Notes: generated by a model from the sequence alone, not told the origin. DNA of 64,000 nucleotides from Solirubrobacterales bacterium (GCA_040880005.1 JBBDJG010000015.1:61588-125587), one strand, 5' to 3'; shown: positions 2,001 to 63,884, counted from the first letter of the stretch. Translations and numbers: made by a program.

Positions 2001-2010
2001 GGCCCGCGTG

Positions 2011-2478
2011 ATGCTCGCCGCCGCGACCGACTCGCTCGAGGTTCTGCTCCAGTTTGCGTTCCTGGCGGTGCTGTACTTGTTCCTGCTGTGGATCGTGCGC
2101 AGTGCTCTTCGCGACATGCGCCGGCCGGCGACCGACCCCGGCGAGGAGCTGGCGCCGTTTCCAGGCGATGAGCGATCGAGGTCGAGCAAAGTGTGGCTGG
2201 TGGCAACCGCCGGCGGCGGGCTCGAGGTCGGGGACGCTTTCGAGATCGGCCAGGGGTTGACGATCGGGCGTTCGGTGGACAGCGCCTTGCGGATCGAGGA
2301 CTCGTACGCATCCGGCAAGCACGCCCGGGTATTCGAGCGCGCCGGCGCGGTCCACCTGGAGGATCTGCGCTCGACCAACGGCACTTACCTGAACGGGGAA
2401 CGCGTGGAGGGCGAGGTGGAGTTGCGCCCGCAGGACGTGATCCGCATCGGCGACACCGAGTTCCGCGTCGAGGAGTGA
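2011..2478 (+). CDS. fhaB: membrane-anchored FHA-domain protein FhaB/FipA
   Basis: Track ORF 1915..2478 trimmed to ATG 2011 (GTG 2008 also possible), just after the fhaA stop. N-terminal TM helix LLQFAFLAVLYLFLLWIV. FHA motif TIGRSVDSALRIEDSYASGKHARV...DLRSTNGTYLNG. Confidence 0.85.
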   Translation: MLAAATDSLEVLLQFAFLAVLYLFLLWIVRSALRDMRRPATDPGEELAPFPGDERSRSSKVWLVATAGGGLEVGDAFEIGQGLTIGRSVDSALRIEDSYASGKHARVFERAGAVHLEDLRSTNGTYLNGERVEGEVELRPQDVIRIGDTEFRVEE

Positions 2479-2480
2479 CC

Positions 2481-4969: not shown

Positions 4970-4979
4970 GGCGCTCGGA

Positions 4980-6413: not shown

Positions 6414-6444
6414 AGATGATGGATTTGATTCGAAACGAGAACAG

Positions 6445-9359: not shown

Positions 9360-11158
9360 TCCGCCGCTCCCGAGCGGTGATGCGCCGGCCCGTGGTCGGC
9401 GAGGTTGTGGGCCGTGCCGACCAGGCCGACGTGCGTGAAGGCCTGTGGGAAGTTGCCCACCAGCCGCTTGGCCTGCGTGTCGTATTCCTCCGACAGCAGT
9501 CCGACGTCGTTGCGTACCGACAGCAGGCGATCGAAGACCTCCTGCGCTTCGTCCCGGCGCCCCATCAGGGTGAGCGCGTCCGCGAGCCAGAACGAGCAGG
9601 GCAGGAACGCTGCCTCGCCTGGAGGGAGGCCATCGACCCCCGCTGTGGCTCCGTCCATCGAGTAACGCATCACGAAACCATCGACCATCAGCTCGCGCTG
9701 GATCGCCCCGACGGTTCCGTGCACGCGTGGGTCGTCGGCGGGCAGGAAGCCGACCTGCGGTATCAGCAGGCAACTCGCGTCCAGCTCCTTGGATCCGTAG
9801 TACTGCGTGAACGTGTTGCGATCCGGGTCGAAGCCCTCGCGGCAAATCTGCTCGTGGATCTCCTTGCGCAGCCGCTTGAAGCGATCGACCGGGCCCTCGA
9901 TTCCGAAATGCTTCATACCGCGAATGGCCCGGTCGAACACGGCCCAGGCCATCACCTTGGAGTGCGTGAAGTTACGCCGCGGGCCACGGACCTCCCAGAT
10001 GCCGTCGTCGGGCTGCTTCCAGCTCGCCTCGAGGAACTCGATCACCTTCGCCTGGACGGACCATCCGTAGTCGTGCTGCTCCATACCCGCCTTCCTGGCG
10101 GCGAACAGCACGTCGGCCAGCTCTCCATACACGTCGAGCTGGAACTGCTCCGAGGCCTTGTTGCCGATTCGCACCGGCTTCGAGCCTTCGTAGCCGGGCA
10201 ACCAGTCCAGCTCGAACTCGGTCAGGCGCCGCTCGCCCGCCAGCCCGTACATGATCTGCATGTTGGCCGGGTCGCCGCTGACGGCCCGCAACAGCCAGTC
10301 GCGCCAGCGCCCGGCCTCCTCGACGTAGCCCGCCATCACCAGTGCGTACAGGGTCAGCGTCGCGTCGCGAACCCAGCAGTAGCGGTAGTCCCAGTTGCGC
10401 ACGCCGCCGAGCTGCTCGGGAAGCGACGTGGTGGGGGCGGCAACGATGCCGCCCGTGGGCTCGTAGATCAGGCCGCGCAGCACCAGCAACGATGTCATGA
10501 CGGCCTCGCTCGCGCCTCCCTCGAACTTGCAGCGGTCGCTCCACTTGCGCCACCACTTCTCGGTCGCGGCGACCTCGTGCACTCCGTCAAGCGCTTTCGG
10601 CGGTTGCTTGTGCGACTCGTACCAGCTCAACACGAACGGCACGCGGTCGCCCTGCTCGACAACGAAGTCGGAGACGGTCTTGAAGTCCTTGCCATGCGAG
10701 TGCACGGGCGTGCGAAGGCGCAGAGCGTTCGGCCCCGTGATTGCCAGCAAATCGCCGCCTTCACGGCGCACCCACGGAATGTTTGCGCCGTAGTCGAAGC
10801 GGATCACCAGTTGCATCGCCATCGGGACGCGGCCGCGTGTGCACTCAACAACGCGCACGATGTCGGGTGCTTCGCCGCGCGGCGGCATGAAGTCGGTGAG
10901 CAGGACCGTGCCGTCCTCGGTCTCAAACTCGGTCTCGAGGATCAGCGTTCCCTCACGGTAGCGTCGCGACACGTTCTTGATTCCGCCGGCCGGAGCCAGT
11001 TGCCAGTGTCCGTTGCGCTCGTCACCGAGCAGCGACGCGAAACAGGCTCCCGAGTCGAAGCGGGGCAGGCACAGCCAGTCGATCGAGCCGTTGTTGCCGA
11101 CCAGCGCCGCCGTGTGCAGGTCGCCGATCATTGCGTAGTCCTCGATTCTCATCGCCAT
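9356..11158 (-). CDS. glycoside hydrolase family 15 (glucoamylase/trehalase-like)
   Basis: Track ORF 9356..11329 trimmed to ATG 11158 (MAMRIEDYAMIGDLHTAALVGNNGSIDWLCLPRFDS, typical GH15 N-terminus). The longer version would overlap the upstream kinase gene. Conserved WVRDATLTLYAL and C-terminal FPQAFTHVGLV. Confidence 0.85.
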   Translation of the reverse strand: MAMRIEDYAMIGDLHTAALVGNNGSIDWLCLPRFDSGACFASLLGDERNGHWQLAPAGGIKNVSRRYREGTLILETEFETEDGTVLLTDFMPPRGEAPDIVRVVECTRGRVPMAMQLVIRFDYGANIPWVRREGGDLLAITGPNALRLRTPVHSHGKDFKTVSDFVVEQGDRVPFVLSWYESHKQPPKALDGVHEVAATEKWWRKWSDRCKFEGGASEAVMTSLLVLRGLIYEPTGGIVAAPTTSLPEQLGGVRNWDYRYCWVRDATLTLYALVMAGYVEEAGRWRDWLLRAVSGDPANMQIMYGLAGERRLTEFELDWLPGYEGSKPVRIGNKASEQFQLDVYGELADVLFAARKAGMEQHDYGWSVQAKVIEFLEASWKQPDDGIWEVRGPRRNFTHSKVMAWAVFDRAIRGMKHFGIEGPVDRFKRLRKEIHEQICREGFDPDRNTFTQYYGSKELDASCLLIPQVGFLPADDPRVHGTVGAIQRELMVDGFVMRYSMDGATAGVDGLPPGEAAFLPCSFWLADALTLMGRRDEAQEVFDRLLSVRNDVGLLSEEYDTQAKRLVGNFPQAFTHVGLVGTAHNLADHGPAHHRSGAAD

Positions 11159-52429: not shown

Positions 52430-52629
52430 GCCGGGGAGCGGCCTGCCGATCGCGGTGAGGACCGCGAGGGCGAGCAGAGGGTAAACCGACGCCAAGCGCC
52501 TCGAGCGCTTGGCCATGGCGCTGCTGGACATCCTGCGGGCGCAGAGCGAAAAACTTCAGGGCGCCGCAACTTGTGTCGATTGGCGTCCGTATGCCTGCCT
52601 TTTCAAGCCAGAAAGCAAGGAGATCTCCC

Positions 52630-54048
52630 GTGTCAGTACGTATCCGACGGTTTGCAACTCGTAGCGCTGCGCTCGCGGCGGGATCGTGCGGCTTACTGGC
52701 GCTGTCGGTAGCCTCGGCCGGGGCCGTCGCCGTCCCAGACGGGATGCCCACGCAGGCGCAGACCGATCTCTCTTCCAGCGACCCGGGCAGTCCTGGTTCG
52801 GGCTGGGGCGATATGGCCGGCGGAAACGCCGCCCGTCCTTACGTCCTGTCGCTCACCGTCATCAACGGCGGCGTATCGACTCCAGTCGTCACCAACGGCA
52901 CCACCACCCCCGGAGTGGTCCCAAGCGGCGGTGTCACGACCGTGGTGTCGCCGTTCAACCTCTGCCCGGCCGGCCAAACGCCGGACGGCTCCTGCTACTC
53001 GACCCCGAACCGCGTCGGGCTGACGGTTGGCTACGGCGCGACCGACACGACTGGCTACAACTTCGGTGAGCCGAGCGTTCCGGTCAGTCCGACCGTTGAC
53101 GCAAACACGATCTTCGACATCACCGTCGCGCTCAACACGCTCGGCAAGAGCCTTCGCTGGGCCTGGGCAAACGGCGATCTGCTGTATTGGAAGACGACCA
53201 ACCTCGGCCAGGACAACGCAACCGTTCGGATCAAGTTCAAGCCGGCTCCACAACCGTTCGTGAACTCCTATCCGCCGGGCGCCGGCTGCACGGCGACGCC
53301 GATCATGAACTGCTCGATTCAGAGCGCCGATGCCGACGTGCTGGCGGCGAACATGTTCTTCAGCCTCGACGACACACTCGACCCCGCATTGACCGGAGCG
53401 ATATTCGCGACCAAGAACGCGATATCGGGCTACCTGGAGCCGGGCGGCACCGCACAGGCGCCTTCGCTCGACATGCAGGTCGCATCGACCCACACGAAGG
53501 CGGGCGGCGCGGCGCAGATCGGCACGCTCCAGGCGTTGATCCCGGCCGCGGCGCTGCTCAACCTCTACGGGATCCTGCCAGGCGACGCGTCGACAGCTTT
53601 CAGCACGACCCGCTCGGGAGCCTCGGGGACCAACGACGCGCCGACCTATGAGCAGTGGACCGAAGCGGCCGAAGGCTCCGACGGGCTGCTTGTCAACGTC
53701 GAGGGGATCACGTTCAGCGTTCCCGCCTACCGCGTCGCCGGCAAGCTCAAGCGAGTCGCGGTGCGGGCCAAGGTGCGGGGCGCCAAGACGAACATCACCG
53801 CATCGATCTCCAAGTGCAGCAAGCGCAGCAAGTGCCTGGCGACGGTCTATAGATTGGGCAAGGACCCCGCCAAGCAGTACATCGCCACCAAGAAGCTCGT
53901 GTTGAAGAACAACAGCGTCAAGGCCAAGAAGCTGTCGCTCAACGCGCCGGCCTCCAAGCTGAAGAAGGGCGACCGGCTGCTGCTTGTCGTCCACTCCGCG
54001 AAAAAGAAGAAGAAGCTGCTCGCGTCGAGCATCGCCACCGTTCGCTGA
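52630..54048 (+). CDS. secreted hypothetical protein with K-rich C-terminal module
   Basis: Track ORF 52573..54048 trimmed to GTG 52630 (AAGGAG upstream). Signal peptide ...LLALSVASAGAVA. C-terminal ~110 aa are basic (KLKRVAVRAKVRGAK...KKLVLKNNSVKAKKLSLNAPASKLKKGDRLLLVVHSAKKKKKLL). Confidence 0.65.
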   Translation: MSVRIRRFATRSAALAAGSCGLLALSVASAGAVAVPDGMPTQAQTDLSSSDPGSPGSGWGDMAGGNAARPYVLSLTVINGGVSTPVVTNGTTTPGVVPSGGVTTVVSPFNLCPAGQTPDGSCYSTPNRVGLTVGYGATDTTGYNFGEPSVPVSPTVDANTIFDITVALNTLGKSLRWAWANGDLLYWKTTNLGQDNATVRIKFKPAPQPFVNSYPPGAGCTATPIMNCSIQSADADVLAANMFFSLDDTLDPALTGAIFATKNAISGYLEPGGTAQAPSLDMQVASTHTKAGGAAQIGTLQALIPAAALLNLYGILPGDASTAFSTTRSGASGTNDAPTYEQWTEAAEGSDGLLVNVEGITFSVPAYRVAGKLKRVAVRAKVRGAKTNITASISKCSKRSKCLATVYRLGKDPAKQYIATKKLVLKNNSVKAKKLSLNAPASKLKKGDRLLLVVHSAKKKKKLLASSIATVR

Positions 54049-54334: not shown

Positions 54335-55399
54335 ATGACCGAGCTGCTCGTTGGCACCAGCAAGGGCCTGTTCGTTCTGGAGGGCGAGCCTGGCTCGAAA
54401 TTCGAGTTGAAGACTCGTGCTTTCGTCGGCGAGCCGGTCGAGTACGCGATGCGCGACGATCGCAGCGGCCGTCTGCTTGCTTCCGTGACCTCTCCGTTCT
54501 ACGGGCCGAAGATCTTCCACACGGACGATCCATCGGGCGAGTGGGAGCAGGCGACGGGGGTGGTAGTGCCCGAGGGCGAAGATGTTGCGCTCGAGCGCAT
54601 ATGGTCAATTGCGGCCGGCGAACGTGACGGCGCGCTGTATGCGGGAGGAGATCCGGGCGTGCTGTTCAAAAGCGTTGACGGTGGTGCCGCCTGGCAGCTG
54701 AACGAACCGCTCTGGAAGCATCCGACCCGCCCGCATTGGCAGCCCGGAGCCGGTGGGCTGTGCCTTCACTCGATCGTTCCCTGGCCGGGCGAGCCGGACC
54801 GGCTGGCGCTTGGCATCTCGGCCGCCGGGGTGTGGCTGACCGAGGACGGCGGCGAGACATGGCGACAGGGCAACGAGGGCCTCGTTGCTCGTTACGGGCC
54901 CGAGGACGCAGACGAGAACACGATTGCATTGTGTGTGCACGACCTCAAGCGCGCGGCCAAGCGGCCGGAGCGGATGTTCATGCAGTTCCACGGCGGCGTC
55001 TATCGCTCCGACAACGGCGGTGAGGTGTGGACTGACATCTCGGCCGGACTGCCGTCGGACTTCGGCTTCCCGATCGTGCTCGACCCGGGCGATCCCGACA
55101 GCGCCTACGTGATCCCGCTGTCGGAGGACGATCGCACCTCTCCCGGCGGTCGCGTATGCGTGTACGAGACTCGCGATGCCGGGGCGAGCTGGACCGCGCG
55201 TGGCGACGGGCTTCCCGACGAGGACGCCTATCTGACAGTCCTGCGCCAGGCGTTCGGGCGAGCCGGCGAGGACTCGGCGCTCGAGCTCTACTTCGGCGCC
55301 AAATCAGGCGACGTATTCGGCTCCAGCGATGCCGGAGAGAGCTGGTTCACGGCAAGCACGCGGCTGCCACCGGTGCTGTCGGTGACCGTCAGCGGCTGA
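54335..55399 (+). CDS. BNR/sialidase-like beta-propeller protein (WD40/YVTN/BNR-like repeat family)
   Basis: 354 aa. Repeated S-x-D-x-G-x-x-W type motifs (KSVDGGAAWQ, LTEDGGETWR, RSDNGGEVWT, ETRDAGASWT, SSDAGESWF). No signal peptide. Confidence 0.7.
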   Translation: MTELLVGTSKGLFVLEGEPGSKFELKTRAFVGEPVEYAMRDDRSGRLLASVTSPFYGPKIFHTDDPSGEWEQATGVVVPEGEDVALERIWSIAAGERDGALYAGGDPGVLFKSVDGGAAWQLNEPLWKHPTRPHWQPGAGGLCLHSIVPWPGEPDRLALGISAAGVWLTEDGGETWRQGNEGLVARYGPEDADENTIALCVHDLKRAAKRPERMFMQFHGGVYRSDNGGEVWTDISAGLPSDFGFPIVLDPGDPDSAYVIPLSEDDRTSPGGRVCVYETRDAGASWTARGDGLPDEDAYLTVLRQAFGRAGEDSALELYFGAKSGDVFGSSDAGESWFTASTRLPPVLSVTVSG

Positions 55400-55408
55400 A
55401 CTCGGGAA

Positions 55409-55561
55409 TCAGGTCATCACCGTGCCGGCCGGCCGCGGCGCGTCCTCCGTGTAGTGGGTGACGTTGACGATGCGCGAGTTCTTGAAGATGGAGGTGTAGA
55501 AGTCCGCGGCCTCTTCGGCCTCGGTGTCGAACCACAGGTTCGGGGTGATCTTCTGTTGCAT
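55409..55561 (-). pseudogene. N-terminal fragment of a PhnB/VOC-type (3-demethylubiquinone-9 3-methyltransferase-domain) protein
   Basis: 50-codon ORF below the track cutoff. GAGGAGG upstream of ATG 55561. MQQKITPNLWFDTEAEEAADFYTSIFKNSRIVNVTHYTEDAPRPAGTVMT then stop. Family members are ~150 aa and continue after ...GSVMTV. The rest is missing and the remnant abuts the end of the BNR gene. Confidence 0.6.
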
Positions 55562-55586
55562 GGCTTGCCTCCTCTCGTACGGCCAG

Positions 55587-56204
55587 CTAGCCCAGTCGCC
55601 AGTGCCGCCCGACGCTCGCCGCCCAGATGTCGCCGTGCGGTATCAGCCAGAAGCGGCTGATAAAACGCTGCAATCCCTCCTCGTCTGAGTAGAGCAGGTC
55701 GACGAACAGGTGCTTGTCGCTCTGGAGAGCTTGGCCGACCTCACCGTGTAGCTGGTCCTCGGCATCGCGGACCGCGCCCTGCCAGAAGCCGACATCGCCG
55801 GCCGCTATGTAGTTGTCGCGCACGGGCCGTCGAAAATCGTCGGGGTCGCCGTGCTCGCCGCCGCCCTCGGTCAGGTGTCCGTAGTTCACCTGCCAACCAC
55901 GCAGCACGGCCAGTCCCGAGCCGACGTTGCGCAGCGTGATGGCCATCAGCAGACGGTCGTCCCTGTGCGTGACAACCGCCGAGCCGGGCGGGACGTGCAG
56001 TATCTCGTCACTCGCGAATCGGACGTCCTCCGGCGGGTCCTCGGGTCGCGACGGAACCAACGTTGGGCGCATCCCGATCAGCATCGCCCGCTCCGCTATT
56101 CGCGCCCGCCGATCGGCGGCGCGCACTGATGCGAACGTGGCCAGCGCCAGAATCAACGTGCCGCCTGCGGTGCCGAGTTCGGCGATTGTCGTGATCTCAG
56201 GCAA
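55587..56204 (-). CDS. hypothetical protein with N-terminal TM helix
   Basis: 205 aa. MPEITTIAELGTAGGTLILALATFASV. Coding-like codon bias. No recognisable family. Confidence 0.5.
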   Translation of the reverse strand: MPEITTIAELGTAGGTLILALATFASVRAADRRARIAERAMLIGMRPTLVPSRPEDPPEDVRFASDEILHVPPGSAVVTHRDDRLLMAITLRNVGSGLAVLRGWQVNYGHLTEGGGEHGDPDDFRRPVRDNYIAAGDVGFWQGAVRDAEDQLHGEVGQALQSDKHLFVDLLYSDEEGLQRFISRFWLIPHGDIWAASVGRHWRLG

Positions 56205-56564
56205 GGTCGCGCGATTCTATTCATGAGCCTGACGACGAGCGCAGCGGTGCCCACGCGGGGCATCCAAGTGTCGCATAGCGCCACCAAGGTCGCCGGCGTG
56301 CACCTTCCAGATGGTCGCTCACATTCGTTCGCCGGGCAATTGGCTGGCCTGCTTCTCCCAACCGGTGAATTGGGCTTCGTCGAGCTGGTCGTTTCGTGGA
56401 TGTCGAGGTAGCGCACTTCCTCGTGCTTGGACTCGCCGAGTGGGACAGGGCGCAGCGACGTGGCGAGGAAGAAAGCCACCGTGACGTACGCATAGCGCTA
56501 CCAGAGGCGCCCACCTCGCTCTCTTGACACCGCCGCGGCCCCCCTTCCGGGTGACCACGACAGC

Positions 56565-56666
56565 GATGGAGCTAGCCGGACTCGGCTGTCAAGAAACCTG
56601 GGTAGCCTCCCTGCCGGGTGCGCTTGGATAGCACCTCCTACCCACCGGCGACCTGCTGGGTGCGAT
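56565..56666 (-). repeat. degenerate copies of the tRNA-Ala 3' half (outermost att-like footprint)
   Basis: GATGGAGCTAGCCGGACTCG (1 mismatch to 63113-63132). Then CCTGCCGGGTGCGCT and GCGACCTGCTGGGTGCGAT, both resembling GACGACCTCCTGGGTGCGAT of the tRNA. Confidence 0.5.
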
Positions 56667-56774
56667 GGCGGCCATGCCTATCACCGGCAGCGCCACAGAT
56701 CACCCAGGAGAGCAGTACAGGGGGTGGATTGATTACTCTCCGCAGTTCTTGGATCCCACGAGGAGGAGGCCGTC

Positions 56775-57104
56775 TTGCCGTTGACTCAGTCGCAATTTGC
56801 CAGCGCCATCGCCGACCGTGCCGAGATCAGCAAGGTCGAGGCCAAGCGCGTGCTCGACGCGCTCGAGGAAGTCGTGCTCGATGAGATCGAAAACGCAGAG
56901 AAGGTGAAGATCGGCAGCCTCGTGCAGCTGACGGTGCGCGTGAGGCCCGCCTCGAAGGCACGCCCGGGACGCAATCCCGCAACCGGCGAGGAGATCACGA
57001 TCGCCGCGAAACCCGCGAGTGTCGTTTTACGCGCGCGAGCGCTTACGAAGGCCAAGAGCGTGCTGCCGTCGGTGCAAACAGCGCGTCGGCGACTTGGCGG
57101 CTAG
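56775..57104 (+). CDS. HU/IHF-family DNA-binding protein with basic C-terminal extension
   Basis: 109 aa. TTG start with GAGGAGGAGG upstream. ...FASAIADRAEISKVEAKRVLDALEEVV...RPGRNPATGEEITIAAKPA (HU signature). Confidence 0.85.
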   Translation: MPLTQSQFASAIADRAEISKVEAKRVLDALEEVVLDEIENAEKVKIGSLVQLTVRVRPASKARPGRNPATGEEITIAAKPASVVLRARALTKAKSVLPSVQTARRRLGG

Positions 57105-57201
57105 CGCATGCTGGCGGCTGGACGAAGCGGCGGTTGAGCGCTGTCGGCTTCGTTCGGACAGCGGAGCCGTTTGGGTCGGCGAGTCGAGGCTACCTTCGTG
57201 A

Positions 57202-57432
57202 CTACAACAGGCGCTGAAACTCGGCTCGGCTGATGCCTGCCGTCTTAAGGATGTTGAGCAGCAATCCTGGCTTGATGTTCCGGTTGCCGTGGATGGGTAC
57301 CGAAATCGCGTCGGGGATGGTCGGATGGCGCATGATGTGGTGGCTGCCCTTCGTGCGCTTGAGATACCAGCCCTCGGCTTCAAGGACCTTGAGGCGCTGC
57401 TTGCCTCTTACCGAGGGGAGCTTGTGGCTCAC
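57202..57432 (-). CDS. hicA: HicA-family toxin (mRNA interferase)
   Basis: 76 aa. ...LKVLEAEGWYLKRTKGSHHIMRHP...SVPIHGNRNIKPGLLLNILKTAGIS. 4-nt overlap with the upstream hicB. Confidence 0.85.
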   Translation of the reverse strand: MSHKLPSVRGKQRLKVLEAEGWYLKRTKGSHHIMRHPTIPDAISVPIHGNRNIKPGLLLNILKTAGISRAEFQRLL

Positions 57433-57650
57433 GCGTGGACCGCTACCTGGTCACGCTCGACCGAGGGGATTGGCAGGCCGTCCTCGCGCATGACCTCGAG
57501 GTAGCCCTCAATTGCCTCTTTGGCCATCGCCAGGGCTTGCTCGCGGGTCTCACCCTGGATGGCCACGCTGGGCAACTCCGGAACGAAAACGCTGTAGCCG
57601 CCTTCTTCCTCGAGCTGAAGCACTACCTCGTATTCGCGCACGTTGTCCAT
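57429..57650 (-). CDS. hicB: HicB-family antitoxin (UPF0150 N-domain only)
   Basis: 73 aa. YEVVLQLEEEGGYSVFVPELPSVAIQGETREQALAMAKEAIEGYLE. Confidence 0.8.
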   Translation of the reverse strand: MDNVREYEVVLQLEEEGGYSVFVPELPSVAIQGETREQALAMAKEAIEGYLEVMREDGLPIPSVERDQVAVHA

Positions 57651-58000
57651 GAATTCCTCTTGGAATAGCTTACGACAGGATCACCATGTCCGGGCGGTTG
57701 CTGCTGAGCTTTCTTCACGGCTTCCTGGATCGCATTCTTGTTTTCGATCAACTCGTCAAGGTCGGGCTCGATCATCGCGGTGATGCCGGGTAGCGGGCTC
57801 GTTCCCAGATCGCCGATGCCGCCTCCCCTGTAGTTCAGGGCGGGCCGGTCGAGAAACGGCGCGAACGCCGTCAGCGCACCATCACCGTTGAGGTCGAGCG
57901 CCAACTGTCCCAAAATCACGCCGTCGCAGTTCCAGTCGAGCGGGCCGGCGAGCAGGCGCGCGCCGGCGACCGCGCCGTTCGGGCATTGGTAGGCGGTCAT
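57623..58000 (-). pseudogene. probable gene fragment (secreted-protease-like DWNCDG/DLNGDG segment without N-terminus)
   Basis: 125-aa ORF that starts mid-domain (no signal peptide) with ...LDWNCDGVILGQLALDLNGDGALTAFAPFLDRPALNY. Its tail overlaps the hicB start by 28 nt. Confidence 0.3.
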
Positions 58001-58184
58001 GAAGGGAGATCAGTTCTTCCCCGGACAGCCGGAGACCGTGTTCGGCTGGTTGCGCGGGCAAAAGCGGCTGATCCGCTTCACCGCCGCCGAGGGCGCGCAG
58101 TTCCACTGCGAGCCGATGGCGCCGCAACTCCGCAACGAGCGCGTCTTCGACTGGCTCGAGTGCAACCTCGAGCCGACGCGCTGA
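57999..58184 (+). pseudogene. probable C-terminal gene fragment (alpha/beta-hydrolase-like tail)
   Basis: 61-aa ORF with strong G/C third-position bias. ...IRFTAAEGAQFHCEPMAPQLRNERVFDWLE resembles the ...GAGHF.q.E.P..v...l..fL end of alpha/beta hydrolases. Abuts the previous fragment head to head. Confidence 0.3.
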
Positions 58185-58217
58185 CGTAGGCGGCCCAGCC
58201 GGCCTGGTTCAGCCCGG

Positions 58218-59405
58218 ATGCCCGTTGCCAGTGCCGAGCCGCGCTGGTATGTTGCCGCTGTTGTGACTCGCAGGCGCCTCAAGAGCATAGGGCTGGCGCT
58301 AATGGCGGCGGCGGCGCTGTCGATGCTGGCCGTGCCGGTCAGCGCGGACGCCAAGCGCAAGCGCGCGGCCAAGCCGACGCTGAGGATGAAGGCCAAGTTT
58401 CCCAAGGCAGGCAAGATGAGCTTCTCGGTCGGAGCGTTCAAGGTCACGGCACAGCGCAGCAAGCGCAGCCGGTCCGCACGGCACTCCGCCAAGAAGCGCA
58501 AGCGCGCGCTCAAGGTCAAGGCCCGGATTCGCAACCGCGCACGCGTTCCCTCCAACGCGCTGGTGTTTCTGCGCGTCGCCAAGGTGAAGAAGAAGCGCAA
58601 CAACTTCGTGGCCAGCGCGATCGTGGTGAACAGTCGCAAGACATCGAAGTCCGCGACCACTGCGGACGACGACGATCTCCAGCCCGGCGACGAGGTCGAG
58701 ATCGAGATGGAACTGACACTCGCCGACGGAACGGTCCTGCGCGGCAAGTTCATCGGCACGGTGGTCGAGGATGATGACGTTGAAGACAACGATCCCGACA
58801 ACCGGAATGTATGCGGGCCGTCCGGTCTGCTGAACAGCGAGGATGATGGCGCCGCCTTTTCGGTGCGCACGCTGTACAACCAGATCCTCAACAGGCTGTC
58901 CGACCAGACCCTCAACCGGCTGTTCGAGCTCACCGGCGATCTCAACTGCGACAGCGTCGTTGACGCTGCCGACTACGCTTTTTATAGGAGCCTGCTGGGA
59001 ATCGACGGTGGCGCCGTTCCCGGTGCTCCCCCGTCACCCCTCTGTCCCGGCGCTCTGCAGGCCGCGCCACTTCCGTTCGCGGCCACCGAGTTCGAGATCT
59101 TCTTCAACTGCAACCAGTCGGCCTCCAGCCTCGGCTTCCTGGTGCCCGGAGCGCGGTCGATCCCGCCCGGCTTGTTCATCCCGCCCGTGAACCTGCCCAA
59201 CTGTCAGATCCAGAGCGCCGAGGGCGGCACCGACAACTTCCTGCTGTGTCAGGGCGGAACGCTGCCCGCCGGTGTGCAGAACATCGTCCGGATCCATCCC
59301 AGCGTGCAGCTCGGCAACTGCGACAAGGCCAAGCTCTACTTCAACCCGCTCGGCACCTCGTCGCCGGCGGTGACCGATACGGACGCGTTCGCGACCTGTC
59401 CATAG
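58218..59405 (+). CDS. secreted protein: K/R-rich N-terminal module, acidic linker, dockerin-like motif, Cys-containing C-terminal domain
   Basis: 395 aa (alternative GTG start 58263). Signal peptide LKSIGLALMAAAALSMLAVPVSADA. Basic stretch KRKRAAKPTLRMKAKFPKAGK...KKRKRALKVKARIRNRARV...VKKKRNN. DLNCDSVVDAADYAFYRSLLG is dockerin-like. Confidence 0.65.
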   Translation: MPVASAEPRWYVAAVVTRRRLKSIGLALMAAAALSMLAVPVSADAKRKRAAKPTLRMKAKFPKAGKMSFSVGAFKVTAQRSKRSRSARHSAKKRKRALKVKARIRNRARVPSNALVFLRVAKVKKKRNNFVASAIVVNSRKTSKSATTADDDDLQPGDEVEIEMELTLADGTVLRGKFIGTVVEDDDVEDNDPDNRNVCGPSGLLNSEDDGAAFSVRTLYNQILNRLSDQTLNRLFELTGDLNCDSVVDAADYAFYRSLLGIDGGAVPGAPPSPLCPGALQAAPLPFAATEFEIFFNCNQSASSLGFLVPGARSIPPGLFIPPVNLPNCQIQSAEGGTDNFLLCQGGTLPAGVQNIVRIHPSVQLGNCDKAKLYFNPLGTSSPAVTDTDAFATCP

Positions 59406-59734
59406 CTCCTTCCGGTCTGCGCCCCCGATCTCGGCTACATGCGGGCGTGTCGCAGTAGCACGCGTCGAGCCGACGATCGACGCACTGGTCGACGCGCTCG
59501 AACGCGATATGGACGCCGCCGGGCTTGAACGGCGCACCTCGCCGGCAACCGGCTCGGTGGCTGGCTGGCGGTGGAGCTGGCGCGGCGAGGACGCCGCGTA
59601 CGGATTTCGGGCATTCGTCGAGTGCCCGATCTACTTCGGGTTGATGGAGGCGACCACCCCAGCTGGACCGCCGCGCGACTTCAAAGGGGTTCACTGTCCT
59701 GTGTTGCTCGCGAACGAGAGACCAAGCAATCAAG

Positions 59735-59780
59735 CGGATGGAGCTAGTCGGACTCGAACCGACGACCTCCTGGGTGCGAT
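59735..59780 (-). repeat. exact 46-nt duplicate of the tRNA-Ala(CGC) 3' half (att-type direct repeat)
   Basis: CGGATGGAGCTAGTCGGACTCGAACCGACGACCTCCTGGGTGCGAT is identical to 63111-63156. This covers tRNA positions 32-73 plus 4 nt downstream. Similarity decays after the anticodon loop. Confidence 0.9.
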
Positions 59781-59793
59781 AACGGCGCTACGA

Positions 59794-59888
59794 GTTCTGT
59801 GAGGTGCGCTGAGCTGCTGTGAAGTGCGCTGAGGTGCTCTCAGGTTCTCTGAGTTTCGCTCAGTTTGAGACCACGGTTGAGTCCACGG
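59794..59888. repeat. 95-bp repeat copy 1, built from 10-bp units (consensus about GTKCKCTGAG)
   Basis: GTTCTGTGAG GTGCGCTGAG CTGCTGTGAA GTGCGCTGAG GTGCTCTCAG GTTCTCTGAG TTTCGCTCAG TTTGAGACCA CGGTTGAGTC CACGG. 21 nt 3' of the methyltransferase stop and 13 nt from the tRNA fragment. Confidence 0.9.
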
Positions 59889-59909
59889 GGGAAAAGCCTA
59901 AGCACTTCG

Positions 59910-60737
59910 TCACGCCCGTTTGCCCACGGCGAGCAGATACTCCTTCTCGAAACGTGCTGCGTCGGGCGTGCCAAGGTTCCACTCGTCGCAGAACTGGTCC
60001 AGCGCCTCGTTGAACTCCGCTTCGCGCTCGTTGTTTCGCGCGTTTGTCAAGGCGGCGATGGTCGGACCGTACCGTGTCTTGAAGTGCTCCCCGTAGTCGC
60101 GTGGATGCTCGAAGGCAGTGATCTCCAGCATTTCACGCTTCAGCGTCAGAAAGTTGACGCGGGCGCCAAACAACTCGTCCAAGTGCTCCTCGCTACCCCA
60201 CAGCGGCGGAGGTTGTGCGCCCGGTGGAGGTGGCGGGGCGAACGGCCCCATCGTCCGGAACAGCGCGCCGATCATGCCTTCGGGAGTCCAGCTCAAGAGT
60301 CCGATCGTGCCGCCCGGACGGCACACGCGGACCAGCTCGTTGGCGACGTCTTGGTGGTGGGGCGCGAACATCGCGCCGATCGACGACATCACGACGTCGA
60401 AAGACTCATCTTCGAACGGAAGGTGCTCTGCGTCGGCTTCGACCCATTCGAGCGCGACTCCCTCCGCCTCGGCGCGGCGACGTCCCGCCTCGAACAGCTC
60501 GGGCGTCAGGTCGCTGGCGGTGACGTCCGCCCCGGCCCGCGCCGCGGGTATCGAGGCGTTGCCAGTGCCGGCGGCGACGTCGAGCACGCGCATCCCCGAG
60601 GCGACACCGCACCCCTCGACGAGTCTCGGGCCCAGCGGCAACAGGAATGTCTCGACCATGGACGGGTAGTCGCCCGAGGCCCACATCGCTCGATGGCGGG
60701 CCTTAAGTTCAGAATCCGGTGTGGTGGCAGACGGCAA
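59910..60737 (-). CDS. class I SAM-dependent methyltransferase
   Basis: Track ORF 59910..61049 trimmed to TTG 60737 (AAGGGAG 7 nt upstream). The longer version runs through the repeat and the next gene. WASGDYPSMV..., motif I VLDVAAGTGNASI, DVVMSSIGAMF. Confidence 0.85.
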   Translation of the reverse strand: MPSATTPDSELKARHRAMWASGDYPSMVETFLLPLGPRLVEGCGVASGMRVLDVAAGTGNASIPAARAGADVTASDLTPELFEAGRRRAEAEGVALEWVEADAEHLPFEDESFDVVMSSIGAMFAPHHQDVANELVRVCRPGGTIGLLSWTPEGMIGALFRTMGPFAPPPPPGAQPPPLWGSEEHLDELFGARVNFLTLKREMLEITAFEHPRDYGEHFKTRYGPTIAALTNARNNEREAEFNEALDQFCDEWNLGTPDAARFEKEYLLAVGKRA

Positions 60738-60792
60738 GGCGCTCTCCCTTCTGGTTGGCCTGTGGACAGTACCGCGCCTCGGCCTCAAGCGT

Positions 60793-60887
60793 GTTCTGTG
60801 GGGTGCTCTGAGCTGCGCTGAAGTGCTCTGAGGTGTTCTCAGGTTCTCTGAGTTTCGCTCAGTTTGAGACCACGGTTGAGTCCACGG
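60793..60887. repeat. 95-bp repeat copy 2 (6 mismatches to copy 1; last 50 nt identical)
   Basis: GTTCTGTGGG GTGCTCTGAG CTGCGCTGAA GTGCTCTGAG GTGTTCTCAG GTTCTCTGAG TTTCGCTCAG TTTGAGACCA CGGTTGAGTC CACGG. Exactly 999 bp from copy 1 and 28 nt 3' of the SnoaL-like gene stop. Confidence 0.9.
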
Positions 60888-60915
60888 AAGAAATTGTCGC
60901 CGCCGCCATCCACTT

Positions 60916-61311
60916 TCATTCCCGCAGCCCCACGGTTTCGAGGGCCTCCGCGTGGTCCCAGAAGAACTCCAGGTAGAAGATCCTGCCCTTGCGCACCGTG
61001 TAGACGCCCGTGAACTCCATGCTCGACTCAGGGCCATGGCCTGCGGCACGCCAGATCATCCTCAGAACAACTCGGTCGCCGGCGCCGACCAAGTCGCTGA
61101 TCGGTTCCAATGCGTCGGCGTCCCAGGTCTCGCGATTCTGCTCGTACTGGCGCATGACCGCCTCCCGCCCCACGAAGGGCCCCGGCTCCGGCCAACCCTC
61201 CGGGGGCCGCATGATGACGTCGGGGTCGTACAACTCACGAAGGGCATCCATGTCACCCGCGTTCCACGCCTCCAAGGCGGCCTGCATCACCTCAACGTTT
61301 TCCTGGGACAT
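60916..61311 (-). CDS. SnoaL-like / NTF2-fold protein
   Basis: 131 aa. MSQENVEVMQAALEAWNAGDMDALRELYDPDVIM... is the typical ketosteroid-isomerase/SnoaL-like N-terminus. Confidence 0.8.
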   Translation of the reverse strand: MSQENVEVMQAALEAWNAGDMDALRELYDPDVIMRPPEGWPEPGPFVGREAVMRQYEQNRETWDADALEPISDLVGAGDRVVLRMIWRAAGHGPESSMEFTGVYTVRKGRIFYLEFFWDHAEALETVGLRE

Positions 61312-61400
61312 CGTCGGCGCAGTATCTCGCTTCTGCCCTATGGACCGCTGGATCTTCTAACCGTCAGTGGCCAGAACGGTCGTGCGAAGCGACCAGAGAA

Positions 61401-61439
61401 TGGAGCTAGTCGGACAACTCTCGAACCCTCAACTCCAGC
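61401..61439 (-). repeat. degenerate tRNA-Ala 3'-end fragment
   Basis: TGGAGCTAGTCGGAC-aactc-TCGAACC... matches 63115-63136 apart from a 5-nt insertion, and similarity is lost thereafter. Confidence 0.45.
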
Positions 61440-61584
61440 TTCAGCTTCGAAGGGCTAGCAAGTCTCCGGCCTGAAATGGGCTTGGGATCGAACCGTAGAG
61501 TCGAGGACACTTCGCCGATGACTGTCGAACTCCCAATCACGATGGGTGGCGAGGCCGGATACGACGCCCCTATACTTGGTTGGT

Positions 61585-61827
61585 ATGACCGCCAAGGAGA
61601 AGCTTGTTCATGCAATTGATGGGCTGTCCGAGTCCGAGGCTCGCGACACCCTTCACTATCTTGCAGAGCGTCATCATCAGGACGCGCTGGTGGAGTTTCT
61701 CAAGGGCGTTCCCGAGGGTGAGGATCCAACCACACCCGAGGAGGAGGAGGGTCTCCGCGAAGCGAGAGCCGAGGTCGAGCGTGGTGAGACGGTGGTACTC
61801 GAAGACCTCAAGCGCGAACTGACTTGA
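61585..61827 (+). CDS. type II antitoxin (partner of the RelE/ParE toxin)
   Basis: Track ORF 61546..61827 trimmed to ATG 61585 (MTAKEKLVHAIDGLSESEARDTLHYL...). Acidic C-terminus. Its stop overlaps the toxin TTG start (TTGA). Confidence 0.65.
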   Translation: MTAKEKLVHAIDGLSESEARDTLHYLAERHHQDALVEFLKGVPEGEDPTTPEEEEGLREARAEVERGETVVLEDLKRELT

Positions 61828-62090
61828 GCGCGCGCAAATCGTGGCGCGTCGAGTTCTCGGCTCGCGCGGCACGTGACGTGCGCCGCCTGGACCCACCCGT
61901 CCGCCGACGAGTGCTCGACGCGCTTGAACAGCTGAGAGGCGACGGTCCGCGTGGCGACGTAATCCGGCTCAAGGGCGGCGACGATTTCCGCTTGCGCGTA
62001 GGTGACTGGCGCGTGCGCTTCCAGCACGATCACGCGGCCCGCACGATCTACGTGCTGCGTGTCTTGCCCCGCGGTCGCGCGTACCGGTGA
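61824..62090 (+). CDS. RelE/ParE-family toxin
   Basis: 88 aa. WRVEFSARAARDVRRLDPPVRRRVLDALEQL...LKGGDDFRLRVGDWRVRFQHDHAARTIYVLRVLPRGRAY is the classic RelE/ParE pattern. Confidence 0.8.
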   Translation: MSARKSWRVEFSARAARDVRRLDPPVRRRVLDALEQLRGDGPRGDVIRLKGGDDFRLRVGDWRVRFQHDHAARTIYVLRVLPRGRAYR

Positions 62091-62257
62091 ACTGACAAGC
62101 CTTCAGGTCTAGCGAAGCCGTTTGCGACTTGTTCGAGCCGAAGCCATTCCCGGTTGGCCTTCGCCCGAAGGCCGCCCTTTACGCGTTGGTGCTTGTTGGG
62201 CTTGCATTGAAGGCAACCGGCTCGTGTGCTCTTGGGTCCTTTGCGCCGATGAGTCAT
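62048..62257 (-). CDS. possible small basic CxxC protein
   Basis: Track ORF 62048..62347 trimmed to ATG 62257. MTHRRKGPKSTRAGCLQCKPNKHQRVKGG... Weak RBS. 3' end overlaps the relE/parE 3' end by 43 nt. Confidence 0.35.
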   Translation of the reverse strand: MTHRRKGPKSTRAGCLQCKPNKHQRVKGGLRAKANREWLRLEQVANGFARPEGLSVHRYARPRGKTRST

Positions 62258-62354
62258 CTCTTTGGAGTATGAAGCAACCGCACGGAGTTGACCGGCCGGC
62301 GCTCGAGCCGATCCCTTAAGCTCGGTCTTGCGGTCGCTCGTGATCACGTTGAAA

Positions 62355-63059
62355 TCAGTCTGGCCGTCGGTCGCGTCGTTCGGTGCTGTGTGCCGTGTCG
62401 ACGTCCAAACCCTCCCGGTACAGTCGAACGCTGAAAGCGCCGAGGAGCAGCACTGCCGGTAGGAACATGAGCAGGACCGCGGGCGTCAGCATCGCTAGCG
62501 CGACAAACAGCGCAAGCCAGGCGCCCCACTGTGGTAGCACCCGTCCCGTCCGAAGAGCAACTAACGCGGTGGGCGCAGCCACCGCAGCGATCGCGACCCC
62601 GAACGACGGAGCGCCGAACGCATAGGACACATCGAAGTAGATCTGGGCGGTATCGCTCGTGAGCTCGCCGTCATCGGCCCTCATGGCTCCAGCCATGTTG
62701 ATCGTTTCAGCCCCGAGCGCGACCACGGCTGTGAGGACCGTGCCACCGAAGGCCATAAGCGGCAATCCGCTCCGCCCTGGGCCCTCAGCGGCGGCGAGGC
62801 GCTCCCGTAACACGGCCCCAAACCAGACGAAGAACGGTAGCGAAACGATGCTGGTCGTTCCTCCGATGCGAATCTCAGTCGAAGTGCTCTTGTAGAAGGA
62901 GACGATCTCCTCGGCCCCAGCACCTTGCGGGGGCTGCTCGAAACCCCAGATCAGATTGCCGATGGCGACCAGGACCGCAGTAGCCAGACCGGAGAGGGGT
63001 GCGAGGTGAGAAAGTCGATCCACCGGCGTGAGCTTAATTCCGCGACGTGCCGGGCACAA
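62355..63059 (-). CDS. hypothetical integral membrane protein
   Basis: 234 aa (start uncertain). About 6 hydrophobic segments (LATAVLVAIGNLIW, IVSLPFFVWFGAVL, LMAFGGTVLTAVVALGA, FGVAIAAVAAPTALVAL, WLALFVALAMLTPAVLLMFLPAVLLLGAF). Confidence 0.6.
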   Translation of the reverse strand: MCPARRGIKLTPVDRLSHLAPLSGLATAVLVAIGNLIWGFEQPPQGAGAEEIVSFYKSTSTEIRIGGTTSIVSLPFFVWFGAVLRERLAAAEGPGRSGLPLMAFGGTVLTAVVALGAETINMAGAMRADDGELTSDTAQIYFDVSYAFGAPSFGVAIAAVAAPTALVALRTGRVLPQWGAWLALFVALAMLTPAVLLMFLPAVLLLGAFSVRLYREGLDVDTAHSTERRDRRPD

Positions 63060-63114
63060 GTCGACGGGAAGAGCTCAACCATGTGCGATCCGTCCAGCAA
63101 AGCAACCAACCGGA

Positions 63115-63187
63115 TGGAGCTAGTCGGACTCGAACCGACGACCTCCTGGGTGCGATCCAGGCGCTCTCCCAACTGAGCTATAGCCCC
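63115..63187 (-). tRNA. tRNA-Ala (anticodon CGC)
   Basis: Reverse complement GGGGCTA TA GCTC AGTTGGGA GAGC G CCTGG ATCGCAC CCAGG AGGTC GTCGG TTCGAGT CCGAC TAGCTCC A folds as a 73-nt cloverleaf. Anticodon loop is A-T-CGC-A-C. G3:U70 alanine identity pair is present. CCA is not encoded. Confidence 0.92.
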
Positions 63188-63293: not shown

Positions 63294-63884
63294 ATGGGAC
63301 CGTTGGATGACGCAATTCGCGAGCATCTCGAGCTGAAACGCCAGCACGGGACGACGGAGGACGAGCTAAAACGCCAGGAGGATGAGGCGTTTGGTCGTGG
63401 CATCGTCGCGCCCGCGCCCGAGCCCGAACAACACGAACCGATTGTCGAACAGCAGGTCGTGCAGGCCGAGTCCGAGCCGATCGCTGAGTCCGAGCCTATC
63501 GCCGCACCGGAACCTATCGCCGCGCTGGAGCCCTTGCCCGAGCCGGTTACTCAACACGAGCCAGTCGTGCCTCCCGAGCCGGTCGGCGAACGCGAGCCGC
63601 TGCCGGACGAGCCGATCCCGCTGTCTCCCGAGCCCGAACCGTTGCCGGATCCGTTCCCCGAGCCGGAGCCCGATTTCGAACCGCTGCCGATGCCCGAACG
63701 GGAGCCCGACCTGGAGCCGGTGGCGGCTGCACAGCCGACCGAGCTTGCCGATCCTGCTTCGGAGGAAGAGATGGCCGGCGGAGAGGAAATCCTCGAGGAG
63801 ACGCCCGAATTCCTGGAGGAGAGCCCCGACAGCGACCGCCTCTGGTTCGAGCATCAGGGCCCGAAAGACTTCGAATTCGACTGA
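63294..63884 (+). CDS. acidic Pro/Glu-rich repeat protein with conserved-looking termini
   Basis: 196 aa. N-terminus MGPLDDAIREHLELKRQHGTTEDELKRQEDEAFGRG. Central (E/A)(S/P)EPIA and EPxP repeats. C-terminus ETPEFLEESPDSDRLWFEHQGPKDFEFD. Good codon bias. Confidence 0.7.
   Translation: MGPLDDAIREHLELKRQHGTTEDELKRQEDEAFGRGIVAPAPEPEQHEPIVEQQVVQAESEPIAESEPIAAPEPIAALEPLPEPVTQHEPVVPPEPVGEREPLPDEPIPLSPEPEPLPDPFPEPEPDFEPLPMPEREPDLEPVAAAQPTELADPASEEEMAGGEEILEETPEFLEESPDSDRLWFEHQGPKDFEFD

Follow-up and report, generated by a model that had tools for sequence, protein, structure and literature searches.

Gene content of the tRNA-Ala(CGC) locus

The window (the whole stretch of DNA that was analysed, 64,000 nt of a Solirubrobacterales bacterium, a soil actinobacterium) originates from a metagenome-assembled genome. 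The features of the locus are listed below, from the upstream flank of the tRNA gene outwards (coordinates, strand, description and evidence).

63294..63884, +, gene of a Glu/Pro-rich 196-aa protein, conserved host flank upstream of the tRNA (tblastn)
63115..63187, -, intact tRNA-Ala(CGC), taken to act as attB, its 3' part being the reconstituted att copy (ARAGORN; Rfam RF00005 at 67 bits)
62355..63059, -, membrane protein, tRNA-proximal cargo, start uncertain (222 aa in a public contig; ORF)
61546..62090, +, putative antitoxin ORF (61546-61827) and ParE/RelE-type toxin (61824-62090; PF05016, E = 4.7e-7)
61383..61439, +, degenerate att copy: 18 nt of tRNA-trailer-like sequence and tRNA positions 73 to ~50, with a 5-nt insertion
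60916..61311, -, SnoaL-like protein, upstream motif GATACT-N9-ATG (PF12680, SnoaL_2, E = 3e-17)
60790..60893, +, second copy of arm module A, no adjoining tRNA fragment (91% identical to 59791-59894; TRF periods 10 and 12)
59910..60737, -, class I SAM-dependent methyltransferase, starting at either 60737 or 60686 (Pfam; 258-aa product also listed for L129, an independent contig)
59781..59894, +, arm module A, contiguous with the exact att copy (TRF periods 10 and 12)
59735..59780, +, exact 46-nt att copy: tRNA positions 73 to 32 and 4 nt of trailer
58218..59405, +, secreted Lys/Arg-rich 395-aa protein, cargo, no family
57623..58184, both strands, two divergent ORFs of 125 aa (-) and 61 aa (+), no family
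57202..57650, -, toxin-antitoxin pair hicA (57202-57432; PF07927, E = 4e-20) and hicB (57429-57650; PF15919, E = 1e-9)
56775..57104, +, HU-family DNA-binding protein (PF00216, Bac_DNA_binding, E = 1.5e-18)
56565..56666, +, composite, degenerate att copy, the outermost that can be recognised: 20 nt, a 59-nt insert and 23 nt
55409..56490, -, older debris past the last att copy (truncated PhnB-like gene, orphan ORF, DUF1801 remnant)

Much of the typical island cargo proposed by the first-pass annotation was recovered by Pfam (HU, HicA, HicB, class I methyltransferase, SnoaL_2 and ParE toxin). The HU gene carries the signature of the HU/IHF family, and the adjacent small genes with family signatures that characterise type II toxin-antitoxin modules were found for HicA with HicB and for the ParE toxin. 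No Pfam match was obtained for the antitoxin ORF next to the ParE toxin or for the membrane protein, the latter being ~67-71% identical in amino acids to a gene in the sister locus L125. The proposed small CxxC protein (ORF 62048-62347) belonged to no family and was missing from the codon-composition-filtered ORF list, and the two supposed head-to-head gene fragments are ORFs of coding-like composition with no family match. Among 136 island ORFs found elsewhere at the hotspot, the top cargo consisted of SnoaL and methyltransferase genes, SnoaL-like proteins being the commonest type (7/136).

Gene debris left of 56565 had been overlooked at first reading: a PhnB-like gene truncated to 50 aa (55409-55561; 161 aa in relatives), an orphan ORF of 205 aa (55587-56204) and the C-terminal remnant of a DUF1801 gene (at ~56310-56490).

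The visibly lower G+C of some patches was upheld by a computed profile: mean G+C was 0.640 in the island against 0.670 in the rest of the window, and 10 of the 14 lowest-G+C 400-nt segments fell inside the island. Third-codon-position G+C of the island genes equalled that of the core genome.

Displaced copies of the tRNA 3' part

The intact tRNA-Ala(CGC) was called by both ARAGORN and Rfam. Its 46-nt exact repeat (59735-59780 = 63111-63156) spans the anticodon loop to the tRNA 3' end, and the boundary of the identity block lies between tRNA positions 31 and 32. The 16-mer ATGGAGCTAGTCGGAC occurred four times with up to two mismatches, against 0.02 expected. The copy at 61401-61439 was as first described, with its 5-nt insertion: it stops in the T arm and is preceded by ~18 nt of trailer-like sequence, from 61383. 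The degenerate tRNA match at 56565-56666 also stood, but what had been taken for a cluster of copies is really two pieces (56565-56584, 19/20 matching; 56644-56666, 21/23 matching) split by the 59-nt insert. Motifs GCTGTCAAG and CTTGGATAGCA.CCTCCT in this insert are shared with a ~70-nt filler that breaks up tRNA fragments in the related array L127. Every copy in the window has the same orientation and lies on the 3' side of the tRNA, as the earlier reading had it.

Arm modules

Arm module A contains approximately seven 10-bp phased units ending CTGAG/CTCAG (59797-59862), followed by two 12-bp repeats, TTGAGACCACGG / TTGAGTCCACGG (59865-59888). The phased units are candidate sites for accessory proteins and the 12-bp repeats putative arm-type integrase sites. 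A 104-nt direct repeat (59791-59894 / 60790-60893, 999 bp apart, 91% identical, with an identical 36-mer in common) brackets the methyltransferase gene; it is absent from the first-pass annotation.

The arms adjoining tRNA fragments sort into conserved families across sister loci. Arm module A of the window matched L109 6594-6744 at 81% identity and five L127 copies at 85-98%, and the motif GCTCAGTTCGGTAGCAC-N4-GGTAGNAC was located 76-77 nt from the core in 11 sister-locus fragments, the same position as in the window. Family D (L074) instead carries two tandem ACTYRCCAA repeats ~105 nt from the core, in common with integrase-less units in L070 and L073. Together, the att-plus-arm repeats measured ~150-220 nt with 70-88% identity within and between genomes; core-less partial arm modules occurred in L127 and L079, and an alignment of arm B gave no covariation support for a hairpin. 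In the reading favoured below, the 104-nt module would be the retained attP arm, whose phased 10-bp sites and two tandem arm-type sites keep a constant spacing to the core.

Recurrence across Thermoleophilia

The 42-nt tRNA segment was present in at least 119 Thermoleophilia genome tiles, and displaced fragments were found in 40 of these, all downstream of tRNA-Ala(CGC) and always in the orientation of the tRNA. Sister fragments mostly start at tRNA position 32 or 27, and the N-terminus of the Glu/Pro-rich protein adjoined the tRNA in ~40 tiles (tblastn). Spacing between copies was 0.17-7.5 kb (median 2.2 kb; 48 kb between fragment and tRNA in OY970397.1), and 11 of 41 inter-copy intervals were below 1.2 kb, too short for an integrase gene plus cargo.

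Many of the units are single-gene cassettes of 0.6-1.1 kb. L109 and L127 are tidy arrays in which single intact genes lie between att copies with conserved arms; at the other end of the range, a unit of 7.4 kb flanked by family-A att sites on both sides held only transporters, a kinase and similar genes. Several cassettes have their own promoter-like GATACT-N9-ATG motif and are found in either orientation; the SnoaL and methyltransferase genes of the window point opposite to the L109 and L127 cassettes. One cassette, 94.5% identical in two genomes, starts exactly at the att copy and has different neighbours in each. SnoaL paralogues within one array were only 27-36% identical (one pair undetected), and most att copies were 100% identical. 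Window positions 56734-57129, which include the HU gene, were 87% identical to an 842-bp single-gene cassette of L127 (between fragments at 9076 and 9918), and on this homology the window HU gene is most probably the remnant of an att-plus-arm-A single-gene cassette.

Search for integrases

No integrase was detected in the window by a Pfam search of the island ORFs (no PF00589), by a motif scan combined with tblastn using three Pfam-verified sister-locus integrases, or by Pfam searches of intergenic and pseudogene regions translated in all six frames. Across ~170 kb of sister islands, PF00589 matched only 3 of the 136 ORFs, a count made on 8-kb tiles, so that integrases farther along large islands fall outside it. 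The 11.5-kb L127 array contained no recombinase, and no integrase linked to arm families A or B was found in the sister-locus tiles.

The exceptions were few. The L074 locus has an Xis-Int pair (an excisionase-like HTH_17 gene and a tyrosine integrase of 381 aa) right after a fragment with a family D arm; a 134-aa integrase fragment was present in L008 and a weak integrase match in L059. Large islands with an integrase include L074 and the 48-kb island of OY970397.1. For three proteins homologous to the L074 integrase (66-72% identity), no tRNA-Ala fragment was present within 10 kb.

Origin of the tandem units

The observed pattern is that of an integration hotspot at a tRNA gene which grew by tandem accretion, a type of structure already known. 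Successive insertion at this tRNA, the core of the first-pass annotation, is corroborated by the displaced fragments in 40/119 tiles, the anticodon-loop crossover and the L074 Xis-Int pair. Its figure of at least three integrations is reasonable; the exact count is uncertain, the methyltransferase unit being bounded by arm repeats and not by tRNA fragments. Decay in the window is also real, as seen in the degenerate att copies at 61401 and 56565, the DUF1801 remnant and the truncated PhnB-like gene.

The reading we favour, at about an even chance, is a hotspot of cargo-only, att-flanked cassettes that most likely arrived integrase-less. The 3' part of tRNA-Ala(CGC) would then serve as attB, with the region ~55.4-63.1 kb as its variable flank. 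Recombination would take place in the anticodon loop through a tyrosine integrase aided by an excisionase-type protein, and every insertion would rebuild the tRNA from element-borne sequence, pushing the earlier 3' fragment and older units outward. At least three or four units would be present in the window (HU, hicAB and the secreted protein; methyltransferase; SnoaL; ParE pair and membrane protein), comparable to cis-mobilizable elements, with the enzyme supplied in trans or the units carried along by an autonomous element next to them; those farther out would have decayed after arrival. Several points count against this reading: no integrase was found linked to arm families A or B, the SnoaL and methyltransferase genes of the window are turned the other way from the L109 and L127 cassettes, the outer units, with their pseudogenes and scrambled att copies, also fit plain decay, and the arm-repeat edges of the methyltransferase unit are left unexplained.

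The first-pass annotation had instead proposed that at least three autonomous elements, each with an integrase, inserted in turn, and that integrases and backbones were later deleted, so that only addiction modules and some cargo genes remain. We consider this rather doubtful. The visible decay favours it, toxin-antitoxin pairs tend to outlast deletion, integrase fragments exist elsewhere at the hotspot (L008, L059) and large integrase-bearing islands are known. However, even the six-frame Pfam scans found no integrase remnant in the window, integrases were very rare across the 40 arrays, more than a quarter of the intervals were below 1.2 kb, many units are too small and tidy (single intact genes, 100% identical att copies, conserved arms, as in L109 and L127) and the HU gene is a discrete 842-bp cassette elsewhere; units are therefore more likely to have entered without an integrase.

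It is less probable still that the att copies date from a small number of old integrations and that present turnover proceeds by homologous recombination after DNA uptake or conjugation, with the tRNA, the Glu/Pro-rich gene and the att-plus-arm repeats as homology anchors and no site-specific enzyme now needed. The length and identity of the att-plus-arm repeats would be enough among close relatives, and the 104-nt repeats around the methyltransferase unit, the core-less partial modules and a third-position G+C no different from the core genome (which exchange within the lineage would produce) would all suit such exchange. Yet it is at the att copy itself that shared cassettes give way to unshared ones, the cargo has diverged strongly between fragments that still match the tRNA at 100%, and the fixed core-arm geometry across families points to a protein-DNA complex. 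Very improbable, finally, is a misassembled metagenome bin, or a tandem duplication of the tRNA region with unequal crossing-over. Independent short-read contigs do end inside the repeats, and a circle or tandem copy might account for the 999-bp methyltransferase unit in the assembly graph of such a bin; but three independent contigs were collinear with the window between repeats (the order across repeats rests on the window assembly), the same architecture recurs in many independent assemblies, complete chromosomes included, and the segments between copies are unrelated in sequence, which speaks against duplication.

As a more speculative extension of the cassette reading, tRNA-Ala(CGC) of Thermoleophilia may possibly serve as an integron-like gene-capture platform: a shared pool of recombinase-less cassettes (a 42-nt core plus one of a few arms, often one gene with its own promoter-like motif) would be moved by dedicated Int/Xis pairs whose genes lie at other genomic sites or on elements present only transiently. 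The four units of the window would then be one such array, in which Int/Xis pairs insert, excise and shuffle cassettes.

Comparison with known systems

Tyrosine recombinases reportedly integrate into tRNA genes at the anticodon-loop sublocation (a description attributed to Williams, 2002). The window resembles the tRNA-targeted islands of Islander in its intact tRNA with displaced same-orientation 3'-side fragments, in a 42-47-nt identity block from the anticodon loop to the 3' end and in the restoration of the tRNA by the element, and in L074 an Xis-Int pair adjoins the fragment. The crossover at positions 31/32 (sister fragments mostly 32 or 27) corresponds to the Islander type A sublocation in the anticodon loop, typical of tyrosine integrases (PMC4383910). 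Islander requires one integrase per island, and in its set of 3919 islands just 4 arrays had three or more in tandem (PMC4383910); by contrast, no window unit has an integrase (no PF00589 or tblastn match) and sister arrays have almost none.

Integron arrays are alike in stacking one-gene, recombinase-less cassettes at one site, each with a conserved recombination-site module, and in a newest-nearest-site order, which is probable here. Unlike integrons, the array has no intI-type integrase or attI beside it and no attC hairpins: no integrase adjoins the tRNA, the repeat combines a tRNA 3' segment with a linear direct-repeat arm, and arm B shows no hairpin covariation. Several cassettes also carry their own promoter-like motif and occur in either orientation. 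The locus is not an integron.

Lineage-wide hotspots at one small-RNA gene, with multiple direct repeats of its 3' end, are found in the ssrA genomic islands of Dehalococcoides (PMC3146451) and the tycheposons of Prochlorococcus (bioRxiv 10.1101/2020.12.28.424599). Both share with the present locus tandem islands, some without integration modules, and older remnants farther from the gene. The Dehalococcoides recombinase differs from this tRNA-Ala system, being the serine recombinase DsiB (PMC3146451). Tycheposons usually carry an integrase and replication genes, with fragmented integrases common (bioRxiv 10.1101/2020.12.28.424599), whereas integrases are nearly absent here and the units far smaller; a tycheposon identity was rejected, as no recombinase with a replication module (helicase/primase) was found in the island of the window, nor in the ten most frequent multi-member families of the 136 sister ORFs.

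A further parallel to the cassettes is given by cis-mobilizable elements and tandem accretion in the ICESt1/ICESt3 family (concept in ICEberg and PMC3146451). The site differs (tRNA-Ala(CGC) of Thermoleophilia versus the streptococcal fda locus), many units here are single-gene (0.6-1.1 kb) and no autonomous partner was found for arm family A, to which the arm of the window belongs, or for family B. Arm repeats in common with an integrase-bearing element were seen for family D, between the integrase-less units of L070 and L073 and L074. As in those elements, att-flanked units without integration or transfer genes lie in tandem at one attB, in the window and in sister units.

Displaced copies of tRNA-Ala(CGC) in the window

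The window derives from a metagenome-assembled Solirubrobacterales genome, and its BNR-repeat protein is identical to the NCBI protein of locus tag WDZ37_04265. ARAGORN and Rfam located the same single tRNA in it, the tRNA-Ala(CGC) gene of the first-pass annotation, and Rfam returned no other match over 55-64 kb. Displaced 3' segments of this gene (att copies) were placed as follows:

tRNA-Ala(CGC) and its att copies
63115-63187, minus strand: tRNA-Ala(CGC) gene (ARAGORN, Rfam)
59735-59780: exact att copy, 46-nt identity to 63111-63156
61401-61439: degenerate att copy with a 5-nt insertion
56565-56666: outermost degenerate att copy (20 nt + 59-nt insert + 23 nt)

The exact copy was confirmed as the longest exact repeat; it comprises four trailer bases and tRNA positions 73 back to 32, and identity ends at the 5' edge of the anticodon loop. 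The copy with the 5-nt insertion is as first described, stops in the T arm and is preceded by 18 trailer-like bases. The outermost locus had been described as a cluster of degenerate copies: the degenerate tRNA sequence is present, but it consists of two pieces separated by the insert. A 16-mer of the tRNA 3' end occurred four times at up to two mismatches (0.02 expected).

Recurrence of the hotspot in Thermoleophilia

The 42-nt tRNA part of the att copies (core) was used to scan one genome per species, and at least 119 stretches were returned as fixed 8-kb tiles. All core-bearing stretches belonged to Thermoleophilia-type MAGs, labelled Solirubrobacterales, Thermoleophilaceae, Gaiellales and the like. 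Displaced fragments were always downstream of the gene and in the tRNA orientation, and most began at tRNA position 32 or 27. Their recurrence downstream of the same tRNA in 40 Thermoleophilia tiles supports well the initial proposal of a hotspot with successive insertions. Intervals between successive copies (n = 41) ranged from 171 to 7460 nt (median 2186), and 11 were shorter than 1.2 kb. Joining tiles of the same contig gives longer arrays, for example six fragments spread across 18 kb of CAVWIN010000002.1 and at least eight across 29 kb of CAWCRN010000022.1.

The gene at 63294-63884, encoding a Glu/Pro-rich protein of 196 aa, was a conserved upstream neighbour of the tRNA in about 40 Thermoleophilia tiles; this side of the tRNA is stable host DNA, and the downstream side is variable. 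The N-terminal part of the protein is conserved over about 35 residues, and the protein belongs to no Pfam family.

A tRNA-Ala(UGC) gene was found on the opposite strand, 1-5 kb from tRNA-Ala(CGC), in at least 12 relatives (including loci L011, L017, L018, L020, L023, L026, L034 and L045); the window ends short of that position. Some displaced att fragments were labelled as tRNA genes by ARAGORN (tRNA-Ile(aat) in L094, a tRNA of undetermined type in L066), and such calls could inflate tRNA counts in these genomes.

Arm modules

A 104-nt direct repeat (59791-59894 and 60790-60893; 91% identical, with an identical 36-mer in common) had been overlooked in the first-pass annotation. The first copy of this repeat, termed module A, directly abuts the exact att copy. 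The pair flanks the methyltransferase gene (999 bp start to start), and this unit carries arm repeats at both ends without a second tRNA core. In module A, about seven units of 10 bp, each with CTGAG or CTCAG at its end, precede two 12-bp repeats (TTGAGACCACGG and TTGAGTCCACGG).

The element-side sequences adjoining the fragments (arms) were grouped into families. Family A, which includes module A, carries GCTCAGTTCGGTAGCAC-N4-GGTAGNAC at 76-77 nt from the core in 11 sister-locus fragments, with the same spacing whatever the cargo; the window module is 81% identical to the copy of L109, a locus from a complete chromosome. In family B (at least 15 aligned copies), an arm of about 150 nt comes after the fragment and contains four GGATG repeats of 10 bp each, together with an inverted repeat that is conserved. 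The family D arm is marked by a tandem pair of ACTYRCCAA repeats at about 105 nt from the core, and the arm of one locus (L074) recurs in L070 and L073, followed there by unrelated genes.

Because this layout is common to the arm families, the 12-bp repeats of the window were read as putative integrase sites of the arm type, and the phased units of 10 bp were taken for putative accessory-protein sites. We take the layout to resemble that of attP in lambda and mycobacteriophage L5. For arm B, a reading as structured RNA or folded DNA was rejected: the predicted hairpin pairs had few two-sided changes and the covariation term was small. The 3' motif of module A was also considered as a tRNA remnant (D-arm or T-arm), which was unsupported, ARAGORN finding nothing. 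Neither the arm-module motif nor the 42-nt core was found in IMG/VR viral contigs, and searches of phage and plasmid collections matched only the tRNA and generic methyltransferase similarity.

Arrays and cassettes at sister loci

In L109, the tRNA gene is followed by five fragments 600-1100 bp apart with one intact gene per interval, and in four of the five att copies the whole core, or nearly all of it, matches the tRNA. The SnoaL paralogues of this array are 27-36% identical (one pair was undetected), and on this ground a recent tandem duplication of these genes was rejected. At L109 5597-5647, a SnoaL C-terminal relic (..DAVGLSE, stop) lies after a non-SnoaL gene and just before an att copy, so a SnoaL gene 3' end seems to be the source of the right arm of the cassettes.

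L127 (11.5 kb) was the only metagenome contig with the 36-mer of the window. It carries five copies of module A, 85-98% identical to those of the window and three of them with tRNA fragments, and its cargo runs in one direction: two SnoaL-like proteins, a glycosyltransferase, a PD40 propeller protein, a CN hydrolase and HU. No recombinase was found in this 11.5-kb array. The HU cassette spans 842 bp from one fragment to the next and has 87% identity with window positions 56734-57129; the L127 fragments are interrupted by a filler of about 70 nt, two motifs of which recur in the window insert (56585-56643). The outermost unit of the window is thus a worn form of a cassette made up of an att copy, arm A and HU. 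The filler (L127 reverse strand 5265-5335, 9110-9180 and 9952-10022) is conserved, contains three short hairpins and splits the tRNA fragments between half of the anticodon stem and the loop; ARAGORN called no tRNA there.

Two species-level genomes (L037 and L066) have one cassette in common, 94.5% identical over 1955 nt; it begins at most 7 nt from the att copy in both, and the adjacent cassettes differ. A unit of 7.4 kb between two family A att sites encodes a histidine kinase, transporters and an ATP-grasp enzyme, and recombinase genes are absent from it.

Cargo, composition and older debris

Pfam agreed with the cargo first proposed for HU, HicA, HicB, the class I methyltransferase, the SnoaL-like protein and the ParE toxin. 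The ORF described as a small CxxC protein had no family and was missing from the codon-composition-filtered ORF list. Among 136 ORFs of sister islands, the commonest families were those of SnoaL-like proteins and of methyltransferases, which are also cargo of the window. The SnoaL and methyltransferase genes of the window are inverted relative to the L109 and L127 cassettes. Four relatives (L020, L021, L059 and L086) have methyltransferase homologues (53-60% aa identity) on the host side of the tRNA, which suggests that the island gene (59910-60737) may be a paralogue, captured or displaced, of a core gene nearby.

A GATACT-N9-ATG motif is common to SnoaL cassettes (window 61311-61335, minus strand; L109 4110 and 6750; L125 at about 6590; L037; L066) and resembles a -10 box for a leaderless mRNA. 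Secreted proteins with long Lys/Arg-rich segments or tails, which belong to no family, recur in and beside these islands (window 52573-54048 and 58218-59405; L127 reverse strand 5792-7330).

The lower G+C noted initially was borne out (0.640 in the island, 0.670 in the rest of the window), and 10 of the 14 lowest-G+C 400-nt windows fall in the island; third-position G+C of island genes equals that of core genes. Older gene debris, overlooked earlier, lies left of 56565: a PhnB-like gene shortened to 50 residues (161 aa in relatives) and what is left of the C-terminal end of a DUF1801 gene (about 56310-56490). In L125, the closest sister locus found, the counterpart of the DUF1801 gene is intact and sits two genes away from the tRNA. 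For the BNR-repeat protein of the left flank (54335-55399), identity to the nearest homologues is about 79%. An empty-site comparison by left-flank synteny was impossible, since only the ThiS-BNR pair is conserved.

Positions 1-54 kb of the window contain housekeeping genes. An ordinary conserved actinobacterial cell-wall signalling cluster (FhaA/FHA, FtsW/RodA, transpeptidase/penicillin-binding protein, PknB(PASTA)) lies at 1242-9356.

Assembly support

Exact-protein look-ups of window genes returned only short same-sample contigs, broken at repeats, and no alternative arrangement was seen. Independent short-read contigs cover the island up to 59764, then 59860-60866 and 60858-63140; since they end inside repeats, the original assembly is the sole basis for the order across these.

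Search for integrases

As first reported, no integrase was found in the window: island ORFs had no PF00589 match, and neither a catalytic-motif scan nor tblastn with three Pfam-verified sister-locus integrases gave a match anywhere in the 64 kb. Pfam searches of six-frame translations of non-genic stretches, with stops masked, gave nothing at E up to 1. At sister loci, PF00589 matched 3 of the 136 ORFs in about 170 kb of island sequence, a count that covers 8-kb tiles, and thus only the nearer parts of large islands.

In L074, the family D arm leads directly into an HTH_17 excisionase-like gene and a gene for a 381-aa tyrosine integrase. A link between this integrase family and arms A or B was rejected: three long-contig homologues (L130, L131 and L132), each with an upstream HTH_17 (Xis) gene, had no tRNA-Ala fragment within 10 kb. 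No integrase partner for arms A or B was found among the L074-integrase homologues examined. DNA methyltransferases and genes of the defence type (SIR2, HipA, PIN, SNF2, NACHT) abound in the L130-L132 islands.

Origin of the units and significance

The first-pass annotation had explained the units as complete elements that later lost their integrase genes. The comparative data do not point to this: there are hardly any integrases or integrase remnants, many units fall below the size needed to have contained one, and the att and arm modules are conserved while the cargo diverges. These three observations favour units that would have arrived as cargo-only cassettes, moved by an integrase acting in trans or by co-mobilisation with a neighbour; the older units would then have undergone ordinary decay after arrival.

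The approximately 8 kb beside tRNA-Ala(CGC) is recently exchanged accessory DNA, not core genome, and contains two toxin-antitoxin pairs, an extra HU, a methyltransferase and a SnoaL-like protein. Across a class of soil Actinomycetota that is little studied and for the most part uncultured, this tRNA is a persistent hotspot; most of the hotspot content has no integrase and would be missed by island finders that require one. If the cassettes truly move in trans, they would represent a simple tRNA-anchored counterpart of integron gene capture, and genetic tools for these bacteria would gain an attB/attP pair that is already available.

A hotspot with successive insertions is a known kind of structure: the type A tRNA sites of Islander (PMC4383910), tandem accretion with cis-mobilizable elements (PMC3146451) and tycheposon islands (bioRxiv 10.1101/2020.12.28.424599) are of the same kind.
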